A stretch of 20,605 bases of DNA, from the IMG/VR virus record IMGVR_UViG_2740892209_000013, one strand, 5' to 3'. Positions 6,788 to 20,605 of this stretch are shown in pieces. Source of the DNA: a virus. Taxonomy: Duplodnaviria > Heunggongvirae > Uroviricota > Caudoviricetes. The position numbers and the translations under genes are program-made. The notes beneath the pieces were generated by a model. It saw nothing but the letters and a program-made list of their open reading frames with translations, was not told the origin of the DNA and did not search any database. Positions within the stretch are counted from its first letter, which is position 1. Each line of letters begins with the position of its first letter.

Positions 6788-6885
6788 TTTTTATAAGCGT
6801 CGACGGCCTCACGAAACATCTTTTCATCGCCAATAAAAGTGGCGATAGTGAATTTAGTCTGGATAGCCATAATTGTTTGATCCAT
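6742..6885 (-). CDS. kil: Kil, host cell-division (FtsZ) inhibitor
   Basis: 47 aa [47 protein letters not shown] inside the longer ORF-track frame 6742..7011; matches lambda Kil. Confidence 0.85.
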
Positions 6886-7018
6886 TTTTTGGGACTCCTG
6901 GCTGATTAAGTATGTCGATAAGGCGTTTCCATCCGTCACGTAATTTACGGGTGATTCGTTCAAGTAAAGATTCGGAAGGGCAGCCAGTAACAGGCCACCC
7001 TGCAATGGCATATTGCAT
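6854..7018 (-). CDS. cIII: CIII, inhibitor of FtsH-mediated CII degradation
   Basis: Own translation, below ORF-track cutoff: [54 protein letters not shown] (54 aa), near-identical to lambda CIII. Confidence 0.85.
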   Translation of the reverse strand: MQYAIAGWPVTGCPSESLLERITRKLRDGWKRLIDILNQPGVPKNGSNNYGYPD

Positions 7019-7090
7019 GGTGTGCTCCTTATTTATACATAACGAAAAACGCCTCGAGTGAAGCGTAATTGGTATGCGGTAACGCCGCGC

Positions 7091-14871: not shown

Positions 14872-15533
14872 ATATCTACGAAAGAATTGATGGCAGCAAA
14901 TACCGAAATATTTGGGTAGCTGGCGACCTGCACGGATGCTACACGAACCTGATGAACAAACTGGATACGATTGGATTCGACACCAAAAAAGACCTGCTCA
15001 TCTCGGTTGGCGATTTGGTTGATCGCGGTACAGAGAACGTCGAATGTCTGGAATTAATCACATTCCCCTGGTTCAGAGCTGTGCGTGGAAACCATGAGCA
15101 AATGATGATTGATGGCTTATCAGAGCGTGGAAACGTTAATCACTGGCTGCTTAATGGCGGTGGCTGGTTCTTTAATCTCGATTACGACAAAGAGACTCTG
15201 GCTAAAGTTCTTGCCCATAAAGCAGAAGAACTTCCGTTAATCATCGAACTGGTGAGCAAAGATAAAAAATATGTCATTTGCCACGCCGATTATCCTTGTG
15301 ATAAATACGAGTTTGGAAAGCCAGTTGATCATCAGCAGGTAATCTGGAACCGCGAACGAATCAGCAACTCACAAGACGGGATCGTGAAAGAAATCAAAGG
15401 CGCGGACACGTTCATCTTTGGTCATACGCCAGCAGTGAAACCACTCAAATTTGCCAACCAGATGTATATCGATACTGGCGCAGTGTTCTGCGGAAACCTC
15501 ACATTGATTCAGGTACAGGGAGAAGGCGCATGA
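14868..15533 (+). CDS. Lambda-type Ser/Thr protein phosphatase (orf221 / NinI, PPP family)
   Basis: 221 aa with metallophosphatase motifs GDLHG, GDLVDRG, GNHE; matches lambda PPase. Confidence 0.9.
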
Positions 15534-15619
15534 GACTCGAAAGCGTAGCTAAATTTCATTCGCCAAAAAGCCCGATGATGAGCGACTCACTACTGGCCAC
15601 AGTTTATTGGTTTTCGTAA
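15530..15619 (+). pseudogene. Q: Remnant of lambda-type antiterminator Q (first 20 codons only, then unrelated sequence and stop after 29 codons)
   Basis: ATGA overlap with phosphatase stop as in lambda; [20 protein letters not shown] identical to the lambda Q N-terminus, then SLLATVYWFS-stop; lambda Q is 207 aa. Confidence 0.7.
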
Positions 15620-15744
15620 CTGAGTCATTTTATTATTTTATTGCAACTTTTAATCTTTTATAGTGCGAAATAAATGGAGCTGGCATTCATTTCGCACTTT
15701 ATGTTTTTGTTGGACTTATGTTATTTTGATTGAATTCAATTCAG

Positions 15745-16704
15745 TTAAAAAAAGAAGGTGATTGCTCCATTTATAAATGAATAGTCATCCCCTGTCTTGA
15801 ATTCTGATGTTACTTTATTAAATGCTAGTGTGAAGGCTACAGGTGCATACCCAATTGTTGCGCCAACTTGATATTCATCAACAGTTTTGTTTAGCGATAC
15901 TGTTGTTTGTTTCGTCTGTATTGTTTTTCCTTCGAGAGTATAGTTGCGATTGACATCTCGTCTTTCCATACCTGCAAAAATCTTGTATTTGAATCCGCTT
16001 GTATCGGACATATGCATTAAACCACGGGGAGCCAGCAGACCAAAGCCATTATCCGAATTGAAGGTTTTATCATTACCAATGGCAATGGTTGCGCCATATG
16101 CTACATATTGAAATAAGTTTCCAGTAACAGCAGAAACTTCAGGGTATAATCCAACATTAGCACCTAAAATATCCATACTTGGTGTCATGGATAGCATCCC
16201 TTTTACAGTATAACCGTAGCGATTCTCTATTTGATCATCCCATGCATGATATTTTTCTGCCCCAATAATCTCATGAGCTTTATTTTGTACTTTCTGACCG
16301 CCTGCGTCGGGGCCAACAACACCTATGTCAGTACCTAATCGATAGCGAATCCAGTCATTCGCAAGGGAGTTCCATTCAATACCAGTGTGAGTGTATGCAC
16401 TAAAAGCTCTGTCTCCAGTTACAGCTGTGTTGTGTCTTTTATTACTGCCTGATGGAGAGTAAATATCTTGCGCAATATGGAGAGATAATTGGCTCGAGTC
16501 TGAGATATCGTGGCTATATCCCAGAAATAAGCCTTGTGAGTAATCATCTCTGTTTTCATGTTTATTGCCATAAATATCATTAAGTATTGGTTGAAACTTC
16601 CCTGCATCATCATTTGCTAATGATAATGCAAGGCTGTTCGCGATAGCTGAACACGTGGTAAATGACAGAGCAATAAAGACGCCAGCGATGACACTTTTTT
16701 TCAT
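15745..16704 (-). CDS. Outer-membrane beta-barrel protein, probably an LpxR-family lipid A 3'-O-deacylase (cargo gene)
   Basis: 319 aa; signal peptide MKKSVIAGVFIALSFTTCSAIA; C-terminal aromatic ...GAITFFF typical of beta-barrel OMPs; length and motifs resemble LpxR as recalled (not searched); AT-rich with a long AT-rich 5' region. Confidence 0.55.
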   Translation of the reverse strand: MKKSVIAGVFIALSFTTCSAIANSLALSLANDDAGKFQPILNDIYGNKHENRDDYSQGLFLGYSHDISDSSQLSLHIAQDIYSPSGSNKRHNTAVTGDRAFSAYTHTGIEWNSLANDWIRYRLGTDIGVVGPDAGGQKVQNKAHEIIGAEKYHAWDDQIENRYGYTVKGMLSMTPSMDILGANVGLYPEVSAVTGNLFQYVAYGATIAIGNDKTFNSDNGFGLLAPRGLMHMSDTSGFKYKIFAGMERRDVNRNYTLEGKTIQTKQTTVSLNKTVDEYQVGATIGYAPVAFTLAFNKVTSEFKTGDDYSFINGAITFFF

Positions 16705-17177
16705 ATGTTATTGTCTTCCTTTTTTTTGAATGGTGCGCGTATTTTACATACATGAGTTTGTAATACAAGGTGCGTAATCAATATGATGTTTTATAATTGC
16801 GTGAGACAATTGATTTATTCGTTTTTTATTGCGGTTTTTATTATCTTTTAATGTAACGGTGTTTTTATTAAGTGTGTTTGCGTGGTGTTTTATGTTTTTA
16901 TAATTTTTATTTTATTAAATTTAAATGCATTAGTAATGGCTATTCTATATAGCAATATAAGAACTGTTACAAAAAAAGGGGGGCAATTACAGGTAGTTAT
17001 GGATGATGAGTGAAACAGATATTGGAGAACCGGGGAATGAATGATGTCTGAGTCTTATATATCAGAACTCCTTCGCTGTCGCTGGGGGCTCCTGTGCTTA
17101 TGTCGTTTCCCCGATTCGGTTTTGAACGATTACCGAATGTTGAAGAATTATGCCAAAATATAGAAAGGATTTACTGC

Positions 17178-17867
17178 ATGAATACCCAATATTTACAGTA
17201 TGTTCGTGAGCAACTTATGGCAGCTACTGCTGACTTGAACGGAGCAACGAAAGGCCAGCTCGAAGCCTGGCAGGAGCATGCACAATTTGATACTGGTACA
17301 TACAAACGAAAGAAGCCGCGCATTCTGGATGTGGTAACTGGCAAGATGATTACGCTGGATAATACGCCGACTTCCGGTAAGCAGTCGTACGCAAAAGGTT
17401 CATCCATTGCTTTGGTCAGCCCGGTTGAATTCTCAACCTCTTCATGGCGCCGCGCGGTTTTGTCTCTCGATGAACATCAGAAAGCATGGTTGCTTTGGTG
17501 TTACAGCGAAAGCGTTCGATGGGGGCATCAGGTCACCATAACGCAATGGGCATGGAGCGAGTTTAAAGATTTGTTAAGTAACAGAAAAATTGCAGGTAAG
17601 ACACTGGATCGCCTGAAGACGTTAATCTGGCTGGCTGCACAGGATGTGAAGAGCGAACTTGCAGGGCGTGAGGCCTATGAATACCAGACACTGGCATCAT
17701 TGGTGGGAGTGACAACAAAAAACTGGTCCGAGACATTTACTGAACGCTGGGTTGCAATGAAGCACATTTTTCTACAGCTTGATAGTGATGCTTTATTGCT
17801 TGTGACGAGAACACGTTCAAAACAAAAGGCAGCATTTTTACAGCAAAATATTGCAAAACTGGATTAA
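17178..17867 (+). CDS. Putative late-gene antiterminator of a non-lambda Q family (by position); start uncertain (17094 or 17178)
   Basis: 229 aa from the ATG with an AAGGA Shine-Dalgarno; no Cys4 zinc finger; followed immediately by a consensus-like promoter and a terminator, the arrangement expected of Q / pR' / tR'. Confidence 0.4.
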   Translation: MNTQYLQYVREQLMAATADLNGATKGQLEAWQEHAQFDTGTYKRKKPRILDVVTGKMITLDNTPTSGKQSYAKGSSIALVSPVEFSTSSWRRAVLSLDEHQKAWLLWCYSESVRWGHQVTITQWAWSEFKDLLSNRKIAGKTLDRLKTLIWLAAQDVKSELAGREAYEYQTLASLVGVTTKNWSETFTERWVAMKHIFLQLDSDALLLVTRTRSKQKAAFLQQNIAKLD

Positions 17868-17879
17868 AAGCCATATACT
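17851..17879 (+). promoter_or_regulatory. Candidate late promoter pR' (-35 TTGCAA, 17-bp spacer, -10 TATACT)
   Basis: Near-consensus sigma-70 hexamers with optimal spacing, overlapping the 3' end of the Q-like gene. Confidence 0.45.
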
Positions 17880-17914
17880 TCATGCAAATTTGGTATGTTG
17901 TAAAAAATGTATAA

Positions 17915-17940
17915 ACCCGCTGCCGAGTGGGTTTTTTTTA
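17915..17940 (+). terminator. Candidate tR' intrinsic terminator (ACCCGCU-GCCG-AGUGGGU then 8 U)
   Basis: 7-bp stem including one G-U pair, followed by TTTTTTTT, about 35-60 nt downstream of the candidate pR'. Confidence 0.55.
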
Positions 17941-18078
17941 TGCCCTGAGTTGTACTTGTACGGTAAACATGCTGGCTGCTATGTAATAGAGTTTTTTTAG
18001 CCTGTAACCTCTTGACGGCATTGAATTGCTTTTGTTATGAGTTGTAAGCCAATGTTATCATCTTGTATTGGGGTGGTT

Positions 18079-18795
18079 ATGAAGGATGGTGCGCTGCTCA
18101 GGAGTTCTTCACTTTTTATTGCCTACATGGGATGCCTTGGATGGGGGAGTGCTTATTTCTATGGATGGGGTACTTCTTTTTACTACGGCTTCCCATGGTG
18201 GATTGTAGGTGCAGGTGTTGATGATGTTGCCAGAAGTTTATTTTTTGCAGTTATCGTCATTGCTATATTTCTTATCGGTTGGGGTATTGGTGTTGTATTC
18301 TTTTTCGCAGTGAAAAGAAAACATTCTATGCAAGAGCTAAATGTATTTCGCCTTTATTTTGCTGTGGAATTATTGTTTGTGCCGGCAATTATTGAGTTTT
18401 CTATATTGAGACAGAAGATTCAGGTACCTCTTTTGCTACTGTCAGCAGCGATTGCGCTGGCGGTTACAATTTCGATAAGATCTTATGGGCGATTTTTATC
18501 GGTATCATGCTTCTATGATAAGCCATTTATAAAAAAACATTTTTTTGAGATTGTGATGATTGCTTTTGTGGCATATTTTTGGCTTTTTTCATTTCTGACA
18601 GGATATTACAAACCACAGTTTAAGAAAGAATATGAAATGATTAATTATAATGATGGTTGGTATTATGTTCTTGCTCGTTATGATAATTGTCTGGTTTTGT
18701 CTACTTCTTTCAATGCAGGTAGTAAAAGGTTTGTCATTTATCAATCAGCACAAGATAAGAATCTTCAGGTTGATATTGTAAGGACCAGAATTTAA
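18079..18795 (+). CDS. Hypothetical polytopic inner-membrane protein (about 4-5 TM segments plus C-terminal domain) in the Q-to-lysis cargo slot; start uncertain (18037 / 18052 / 18079)
   Basis: 252-aa ORF; ATG at 18079 has a GGGGTGG Shine-Dalgarno; hydrophobic segments FFAVIVIAIFLIGWGIGVVFFFAV, VPLLLLSAAIALAVTISI, FEIVMIAFVAYFWLFSFL; AT-rich. Confidence 0.6.
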   Translation: MKDGALLRSSSLFIAYMGCLGWGSAYFYGWGTSFYYGFPWWIVGAGVDDVARSLFFAVIVIAIFLIGWGIGVVFFFAVKRKHSMQELNVFRLYFAVELLFVPAIIEFSILRQKIQVPLLLLSAAIALAVTISIRSYGRFLSVSCFYDKPFIKKHFFEIVMIAFVAYFWLFSFLTGYYKPQFKKEYEMINYNDGWYYVLARYDNCLVLSTSFNAGSKRFVIYQSAQDKNLQVDIVRTRI

Positions 18796-19224
18796 TTGGC
18801 TGCATAAATAATATTTTAAGTTGCAAGTTGGCTATTCGTAGGAATAGAACCTTAGGCATGCTGAATGCGTTTTCTGAACATTGTTTTATAAACTGTGTCT
18901 GCTTGCTGTTGTGATCCTGCTTTTAGTGATGGTGATGATGGATTTCACCAGCAGGATAATGTTGGTACTGACTGATGGCGCTCTGGTCTGCGGCATTGTG
19001 GTATTGCTGTGGCCGATGATGAAAGAACAGAATGAATAATTCTTGACTTTTTTGTTTACTGTTTATTAAAAAATCAACCGCATGGTGAATCCTCCTTGGA
19101 GGGGCTAAATGATCGAGTTTTAAGGGCACGTAGCGAGTTCTGTTTGATCATTGCAGAACTTAGCGGGAGGCGCCATGCGTACATCACTAGTGTTATTCCT
19201 TTTATCATTTTCCTTGTGAGTTCT

Positions 19225-19251
19225 GGCTGCGCATTGCGCAGCCTTTTTTTT
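19225..19251 (+). terminator. Strong intrinsic terminator (GGCTGCGC-att-GCGCAGCC then 8 T)
   Basis: 8-bp perfect GC-rich stem plus TTTTTTTT, upstream of nanS-p. Confidence 0.6.
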
Positions 19252-19337
19252 ATGACCTGCCACTGGCAGATGGTCATCCTGTGATTTGATTCCGCTTCCG
19301 GCTTTTTAACTCTGTTCCTCTACACGGGAGAAATTCG

Positions 19338-20605
19338 ATGTCGATTAAACATTACGATGTTGTCAGGGCGGCNNNNNNNNNNNNNNNNNNNNNNNNNNNN
19401 NNNNGTCGCCGTCAGACCTTGCGGAAAAGCTGACACACAAACTGAAAGAGGGCTGGCAGCCATACGGCGGACCGGTTGCCATTACGCCGTACACACTGAT
19501 GCAGGCGGTGGCTATTGAAGGAGAGCCACAGGTCGGCCCTTCATCTGAGCCGGATTGGTACTACGTCATCGTACTGGCCGGGCAGTCCAATGCCATGGCT
19601 TACGGTGAAGGGCTTCCGCTGCCGGATTCATACGATGCTCCGGATCCGCGCATTAAACAGCTGGCGCGCCGCAGTACAGTGACGCCGGGCGGGGCTGCCT
19701 GCAGATATAACGATATTATTCCGGCTGACCACTGTCTGCATGATGTGCAGGATATGAGTACGCTGAATCATCCGAGGGCTGACCTGAGCAAAGGGCAGTA
19801 CGGCTGTGTCGGTCAGGGTTTACATATTGCCAAAAAACTGCTCCCGTATATCCCGAATAACGCGGGGATCCTGCTGGTACCATGCTGTCGTGGTGGTTCG
19901 GCATTTACCCAGGGCGCGGAGGGGACATTCAGCGAGTCCACGGGGGCCAGTCAGGATTCGGCACGCTGGGGGGTGGGCAAGCCGTTATATCAGGATCTGA
20001 TTTCCCGCACAAAAGCGGCATTGCAGAAAAATCCCAAAAACGTTCTGCTGGCCGTCTGCTGGATGCAGGGTGAGTTTGACATGAGCGCCGCCACCCACGC
20101 ACAGCAACCTGCGCTGTTTACAGCCATGCTGACACAGTTTCGTGCTGACCTCTCCGTGTTTAACGCGCAGTGCCATGGTGGCAGTGCTGCAGATGTGCCG
20201 TGGGTTTGTGGTGACACGACGTATTACTGGAAAAATACATACGCTACCCAGTACGACACCGTGTACGGCGGGTATAAAAACAGGGAGAGTGAGGGCGTTT
20301 ATTTTGTGCCCTTCATGACAGACGGTAACGGCGTCAATACCGCCACTAACGCGCCGGCAGAAGATCCGGATATTCCGGCATCAGGATATTACGGTGCGGC
20401 ATCGAGAACGAATGGAAACCAGGTATCATCAAACCGCCCGACACATTTCAGTTCATGGGCGCGCAGGAGCATTATTCCGGATCGTCTGGCAACCGCTATT
20501 CTGAACGCAGCCGGGCGCACCTCAGCCTTCATCAGTGGTAAGGCACCGGAAATCAAACCCTCGCCCGGCGGCAACACGCCATCGGGTCCGTCTGCAGATA
20601 CGTCC
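19338..20605 (+). CDS. nanS: Prophage sialate 9-O-acetylesterase NanS-p (SASA/SGNH-like, GQSN motif); 3' end beyond window; interrupted by an assembly gap
   Basis: Starts MSIKHYDVVRA, then after the N-run SPSDLAEKLTHKLKEGWQPYG...DWYYVIVLAGQSNAMAYGEGLP...; open to the end of the window; position matches the nanS-p gene that follows stx in Stx phages. Confidence 0.75.
19373..19404. other. Assembly gap (32 N) inside the nanS-p coding sequence
   Basis: Run of n characters; reading frame before and after differs by 2 if the gap were real length. Confidence 0.95.

Follow-up and report, generated by a model that had tools for sequence, protein, structure and literature searches.

A TfpB-family membrane protein gene in the late region of phage 434 as a candidate host-adaptation factor

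Between the late antiterminator gene Q and the esterase gene nanS-p, in the interval that holds the toxin genes in Stx phages, the lambdoid phage DNA analyzed here (20,605 nt in total, referred to as the window) carries a gene for a polytopic membrane protein, which raises the question of what this protein is and what it does for the phage or its host. A preliminary description made from the sequence alone presented the gene as one without a recognizable family and by implication as new. The window is 99.9% identical at the DNA level to Escherichia phage 434 (OL657226.1), and the product of the gene is 100% identical to CPT_434_68 of that phage, annotated as "putative membrane protein"; the RefSeq label of the identical protein is hypothetical (WP_001302581.1). 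The implied novelty is therefore not upheld. The gene itself is no discovery: it is deposited, annotated in 434 and catalogued in protein families, though functionally uncharacterized. In the 434 record CPT_434_68 is followed by genes for TciB, a putative membrane protein, a SASA esterase and a class II holin, beyond which lie those for a SAR endolysin, spanins and an Iss/Bor-like lipoprotein. The features of the window that bear on the gene are listed in Table 1.

Table 1. Position of the TfpB-family gene and of the elements around it in the window.
Feature	Position	Strand	Remarks
lpxR, outer-membrane lipid A 3'-O-deacylase	15745..16704	-	
Q82-type late antiterminator Q	17178..17867	+	Pfam PF06323 E=1.7e-91; PHROG 304
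pR'-like late promoter, TTGCAA-17-TATACT	17851..17879	+	Consensus match only; overlaps Q end
tR'-like intrinsic terminator, 9-bp stem and T-run	17913..17942	+	Annotated terminator in OL657226 too
Candidate own-promoter region of TfpB-family gene	18012..18061	+	Weak sequence matches
Longest ORF of membrane-protein gene	18037-18795	+	252 aa
TfpB-family (PF27470 / PHROG 1521) inner-membrane protein gene	18079..18795	+	238 aa; Met15 start
DUF3927 / 'TciB' small membrane protein ORF	18881..19039	+	52 aa
Putative membrane protein ORF	19096..19284	+	62 aa
Terminator-like hairpin within 62-aa ORF	19225-19243		
nanS-p 5' part (DUF1737-SASA esterase)	19339..20605	+	Continues past window end

The AT-richness noted in the preliminary description is borne out, as the GC content of the longest ORF is 0.36 compared to 0.46 for the whole window. 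Because all 30 aligned full-length homologues (30/30) start at the position of Met15 of this ORF, the ATG at 18079, which is preceded by GGGGTGG, is very probably the true start codon, giving the product of 238 aa; the phage 434 record places the start at Met6 (18052). Comparison with alleles that are 94-97% identical, for which dS is unsaturated, gave a dN/dS of 0.06-0.08 for the gene and a dN of 0 for codons 1-60. Judged from these comparisons, the ORF is a real gene under strong purifying selection.

The Q-like gene and the promoter/terminator pair that had been described upstream of the gene were both recovered, the former by its PF06323 match and the latter as the pR'-like and tR'-like sites given in Table 1, the intrinsic terminator being called at 17913-17934. 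The mechanical ORF of Q runs from a GTG at 17094, and the start consistent with its family (MNT...) lies at 17178. Between the terminator and the TfpB-family gene, a candidate promoter of its own can be drawn as TTGACG (18012-18017), a spacer of 18 nt and TGtTATGAG (18033-18041), and a promoter scan returned TTGTTA-18-TATCAT at 18032-18061. A TTGAC box and the string TTTGTxATG are common to the DNA upstream of the 434, ETEC and ExPEC copies. A promoter belonging to the 434 gene itself is possible in view of these shared strings, although promoter-like matches in this region occur at chance level. Downstream of the gene, the DUF3927 ORF uses TTG as start codon and accompanies the 434-type tfpB allele only (loci L001, L010 and L017). 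In one phage record it is labelled 'TciB-like inhibition of cell division or resistance to colicin'. Within nanS-p, a run of 32 N at 19373-19404 masks some of the sequence coding for the N-terminal region.

The preliminary description had further placed the gene in the slot between Q and nanS-p that is occupied by stx in Stx phages. The slot is correct: in an Stx1a phage stx1A and stx1B lie between Q and nanS-p, and the DNA that this phage has in common with the window begins only at nanS-p. By position, from Q, pR' and tR' to nanS-p in a lambdoid late region, the 434 gene is a moron of the Stx slot. The gene does not directly adjoin nanS-p, as two small membrane protein ORFs and a terminator-like hairpin intervene. 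The absence of tRNA genes of the kind that accompany stx was seen again with ARAGORN, which found no tRNA gene in the window. The analogy of position does not make the TfpB-family protein toxin-like. Upstream of the slot, the 434 record annotates an N-terminal fragment of a lambda-like Q at window positions 15530-15620 (+), directly after the ninI phosphatase gene. This fragment suggests that a lambda-type Q region was replaced in 434, being displaced by the lpxR-ylcG-Q82-tfpB module.

The statement that the protein belongs to no recognizable family is contradicted by PHROG 1521, by PF27470 (TfpB) and by a homologue in Salmonella, STM1630. The match to PHROG 1521 has an E-value of 2.1e-154 and aligns protein residues 31-252 with profile positions 1-222 of 222; the category of this PHROG is unknown function. 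Membership of PF27470 follows, indirectly but consistently, from precomputed domains and from TfpB labels in gene tables: the domain is assigned to P0001, the cluster representative with 100% identity, and to all 103 homologues. The remote-homology searches placed the protein in a family (PHROG 1521 / PF27470), and no match in homology or in fold points to a function. Searches of NCBIfam, PADLOC and a Pfam-A copy that does not include the PF27470 model returned noise only, and a profile search of the PDB found nothing. The best Foldseek match in the PDB had an E-value of 0.7; the local matches were weak and SH3-like or MscS-like, and fold similarity to MscS-like channels was not significant. 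In BFVD the best match had an E-value of 0.04 and spanned 66 columns. The protein showed no match to O-antigen modification enzymes, the models for GtrABC and Oac acyltransferase_3 in Pfam and NCBIfam giving nothing at E<=1 except noise.

An exhaustive profile search among 1.84 billion representatives found 73 family clusters at 50% identity, and a search for related loci with close alignment gave 6 loci. Where a source is named, it belongs to the Enterobacteriaceae, the Pasteurellaceae (Avibacterium, Gallibacterium, Actinobacillus, Pasteurella and H. ducreyi) or Neisseria, all of which are animal-associated, and all TfpB-family genes are AT-rich relative to their own loci. Proteins of 237-238 aa with five transmembrane (TM) helices and a C-terminal beta domain are found throughout PF27470 / PHROG 1521, and the 434 copy is an ordinary member of the family with no feature that distinguishes it. 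One E. coli member carries the source annotation 'protein tfpB'. The name TfpB presumably derives from tfpB, a function-unassigned ORF of the Moraxella pilin-inversion region. Literature searches for TfpB returned papers on chemistry or anaesthesia, on type IVb pili or on the Acinetobacter TfpB ATPase, and searches by the RefSeq accessions of family proteins returned nothing.

Several strongly hydrophobic segments are seen in a Kyte-Doolittle plot. An AlphaFold model based on a diverse alignment reached a pLDDT of 83.9 and a pTM of 0.78; the model from a shallow enterobacterial alignment was poor (pLDDT 59). Helices are modelled at residues 10-36, 47-79, 84-111, 116-137 and 155-181 and are followed by a C-terminal five-strand beta domain of ~55 aa at residues 184-235. 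Hydropathy and model therefore agree with the polytopic protein of 4-5 TM helices described before, the number being five. In both alignments loops 2 and 4 hold 3.3-4.4 Lys/Arg residues, whereas loops 1 and 3 have no more than ~1, and this bias points to a predicted topology with a cytoplasmic N-terminus, five TM helices and a periplasmic C-terminal domain. The best conserved parts are TM1 (0.90), loop 1 (0.85) and the stretch right after TM5 (0.73). Loop 1 contains the conserved aromatic/Gly-rich motif GWGSAYFYGWG.SFYYGFPWW..G..DD.ARSL, and YKPQFKKEYEM is a further constrained stretch. Taken together with the predicted topology, these conservation peaks place the constrained surface of the protein, formed by the loop 1 motif and YKPQFKKEYEM, at the periplasmic leaflet of the membrane; the small beta domain, likewise among the most conserved parts, is on this face too. 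Near-invariant positions in the wider family are confined to Gly and Ala, and polar residues are nowhere invariant, which argues against an enzyme role.

Within E. coli, the TfpB-family gene is present at >=99% identity in 679 complete genomes, and the lpxR-ylcG-Q-tfpB block is found in 618 of 5,426 genomes (~11%), the carriers including O157:H7, O26, O103, O111, O121 and O145. Among phage records, tblastn identified the TfpB-family gene only in 434 and 2B8, and lpxR in two of 50,697 records (434 and 434B). A 3-kb contig binned with a Veillonella sp. MAG (JAIITD010000172.1, locus L010) carries a 100% identical tfpB together with the DUF3927 and small membrane protein ORFs, and almost certainly stems from an E. 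coli prophage, its binning being wrong. Phage 434B is a laboratory derivative with clear plaques in which the interval from Q to the holin gene is replaced by DLP12 DNA (Q, nmpC::IS5). The TfpB-family gene is absent from 434B, which was nevertheless propagated and purified as virions. The gene is dispensable for phage growth, because 434B grows without it.

Most members of the family stand alone in the genome, away from the late regions of prophages. In H. ducreyi the homologue lies between a sigma-70-family factor gene and mqo, and in Avibacterium between an M48 peptidase gene and an ABC-F gene. Homologues without nearby phage genes are also found in a two-gene islet of C. rodentium, beside sseJ in Salmonella and on plasmids. 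The neighbours of TfpB-family genes are virulence or envelope cargo (lpxR, pmrD, eltAB, sseJ, iro/bor and pINV). For Shigella pINV, 106 plasmid records contain the homologue, which is flanked there by virA and by the spa end of the entry region, and on porcine-type ETEC plasmids the homologue is divergent from eltAB. The ExPEC chromosomal copy (locus L022, region about 6830-7000) lies beside iroBCD, with a bor/iss gene downstream. A tR'-like terminator is retained upstream of it, indicating a lambdoid origin, and this part of the iro island looks like a decayed lambdoid late region.

The neighbour that recurs in the three TfpB clades nearest to the 434 copy is lpxR. The two genes are arranged as lpxR-ylcG-Q-tfpB in 434, with tfpB convergent with lpxR in P0019-type prophages, and as a two-gene islet in C. 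rodentium. In EHEC, lpxR has been reported as a Ler/Pch-regulated immune-evasion gene. A homologue of pmrD, the connector from PhoPQ to PmrAB, lies by lpxR and tfpB in the P0019-type prophages (9187-9504 in L027 and 9188-9505 in L028, both on the minus strand), so that in these prophages the Q-to-nanS-p slot holds a small cluster of cargo, pmrD, lpxR and tfpB, with lipid A as its theme. The lpxR gene of the C. rodentium assembly (5863-6823 in L021, minus strand) is frameshifted into ORFs of 164 and 175 aa and may be a pseudogene or the result of an assembly error.

The member of the family for which phenotypes have been published is that of Salmonella. It has the same length and architecture as the 434 protein, shares 46% identity with it and is likewise encoded by an AT-rich, horizontally acquired gene, of 717 bp, which lies between steB and sseJ and is divergent from sseJ. 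A published primer for the deletion of STM1630 matches this gene at 45 of 46 bases and the published promoter oligonucleotide at 70 of 70, confirming that the Salmonella family member is STM1630. No function was assigned to STM1630 by the authors who studied it (PMC6785131). The gene is absent from S. Typhi, and in transposon screens it seemed "essential" as a result of H-NS binding, with a clean deletion growing normally in LB (PMC6785131). Its own promoter drives expression in SPI-2-inducing medium and in macrophages and is broken in ST313 (PMC6785131). Mutants were attenuated in calves and chickens, and deletion in strain 4/74 resulted in more intramacrophage replication (PMC6785131). STM1630 is co-regulated with SPI-2 and PhoP-type genes, being listed with SPI-2, pagD, pagK, ugtL and lpxO (PMC2639726), and its deletion was scored as hypermotile in one screen (PMC4219756). 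STM1630 differs from the 434 gene in being a chromosomal islet gene with a mapped promoter of its own, which is silenced by H-NS and induced by SPI-2 conditions and in macrophages, and its expression comes from this promoter and not from phage late transcription; the 434 copy is set inside a phage late operon.

We favour, at about even confidence, the explanation that the 434 gene is a dispensable moron of the mobile TfpB family whose product is a host-adaptation factor at the periplasmic face of the lysogen inner membrane. The gene would be cargo without a part in replication, assembly or lysis, and the protein would act in the envelope of the lysogen, in an arm of the phage whose further cargo (lpxR, nanS-p and a bor/iss-like gene) is also directed at the envelope. 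It would probably bind an envelope component (a lipid, a glycan or a membrane protein) at the periplasmic leaflet and not act by catalysis, as the wider family lacks an invariant polar residue. From its position, the 434 copy should be the first gene transcribed after pR'/tR' on induction, by Q-modified polymerase, and by analogy with STM1630 it may also be transcribed from an H-NS-silenced promoter of its own. The gene resembles other lambdoid morons (bor/iss, lom, lpxR, nanS-p and stx) in being AT-rich, lytically dispensable cargo of the Q-to-lysis interval, flanked by a terminator and in envelope-directed company. These other morons have known activities and act at the outer membrane or outside the cell, whereas the TfpB-family protein is an inner-membrane protein.

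The best placed of the alternatives, though an unlikely one, is that the protein serves in superinfection exclusion, phage defence or a function like colicin immunity, and blocks the entry of DNA or toxin at the periplasmic face. Proteins of this kind are P22 SieA, T4 Imm and HK97 gp15, which are small, borne by prophages, encoded on their own and active in the inner membrane at this face, and the TfpB-family protein would be like them in size, independence and location. In agreement with this alternative, the family consists of single-gene, AT-rich, polytopic membrane morons on prophages, plasmids and islets, the conserved surface is predicted to face the periplasm, the gene is not needed for phage growth, and the next gene is TciB-like by annotation in one phage record. 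However, no similarity to SieA, Imm or gp15 was detected in sequence, profile or fold, there was none to known Sie/Imm proteins in PHROGs and no PHROG annotated for exclusion was matched, and none of the PADLOC families of anti-phage defence was matched. In contrast to those proteins, TfpB-family members are also fixed chromosomal genes in non-prophage contexts, such as the lone Pasteurellaceae copies among housekeeping genes. The family is confined to animal-associated taxa and is not broad, and it is under very strong purifying selection, arms-race diversification not being seen in the conserved N-terminal part. Furthermore, STM1630 is induced in macrophages along with virulence genes.

A function as partner of LpxR in lipid A remodelling is distinctly improbable and comes next. 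From the inner membrane the protein would adjust lipid A or LPS so as to let the outer-membrane deacylase work, or it would buffer the effects of the latter. This alternative draws on the adjacency of lpxR in three arrangements, on co-divergence of the two proteins (70-75% identity for LpxR and 66-68% for TfpB), on the presence of the block in E. coli at the frequency given above and on the aromatic belt that the model places at the periplasmic leaflet. It also draws on rarity, as lpxR and tfpB are each very rare among phages (2 and 3 of 50,697 phage records, respectively), yet both are present in 434.

We consider it very improbable that the protein is an accessory to toxins or effectors, aiding as a membrane protein the release or export of LT, of products of the Stx slot or of SseJ. 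The stx-equivalent slot would fit such a role, as would the divergent arrangement with eltAB on ETEC plasmids and, in Salmonella, with sseJ, but the homologue adjoins eltAB on only 19 of ~70 LT plasmids and is not found there on H10407 and other human prototype plasmids, phage 434 carries no toxin, and many family members have neither a toxin nor an effector as neighbour. The link to eltAB is thus lineage-specific, which makes the accessory role unlikely. The LT plasmids themselves differ in how much DNA they have in common around the toxin genes (L003/L019 compared to H10407): porcine-type plasmids share ~2.7 kb (eltBA and tfpB), and in human ETEC LT plasmids the shared DNA is only ~1.4 kb and stops ~250 bp upstream of eltA. 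This limit marks a boundary, due to recombination or an IS, between the porcine and human LT plasmid lineages.

A role in lysis, be it as holin, as antiholin or in setting the lysis timing of the late operon, to which only the position of the protein as a membrane protein encoded first in the late transcription unit would point, is barely conceivable and has been largely refuted, as the protein, which has 238 aa and combines five TM helices with a folded beta domain, lies beyond the range of holins (about 60-150 aa, 1-4 TM helices and a charged C-terminal tail), is neither needed for lysis nor encoded next to the endolysin, and matches no holin family in Pfam or PHROGs, whereas 434 has separately annotated genes for a class II holin, a SAR endolysin and spanins downstream of nanS-p, 434B lyses and propagates without the gene, and homologues are found without any lysis genes, all in agreement with the preliminary description, which had held that the protein is no lambda-type holin.

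Returning to the favoured explanation, a dispensable moron for host adaptation, the 434 copy is linked through STM1630 to a gene with infection phenotypes, and the phage thereby offers a tractable K-12 model of a conserved, virulence-associated membrane protein. The block in which it resides is present at >=99% identity in about one in nine complete E. coli genomes, major EHEC serogroups included. The cross-links between phage 434, EHEC prophages, pINV, porcine LT plasmids, STM1630 and lpxR form a useful lead and not a surprise. A wider proposition, which we regard as improbable, is that TfpB proteins are an unrecognized class of host-induced inner-membrane envelope modulators common to all carriers (EHEC prophages, Shigella pINV, porcine ETEC LT plasmids, Salmonella with STM1630, C. 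rodentium, Pasteurellaceae and Neisseria). These proteins would use the invariant aromatic/Gly belt on their periplasmic side to act on an envelope target that is itself conserved and may be lipid A/LPS, together with LpxR, and would affect gut colonization. Elsewhere in the window, a lambda cIII thermoregulator element (RF01804, 81.9 bits) lies at 6973-7031 on the minus strand and is the sole Rfam match in the window at the gathering threshold.
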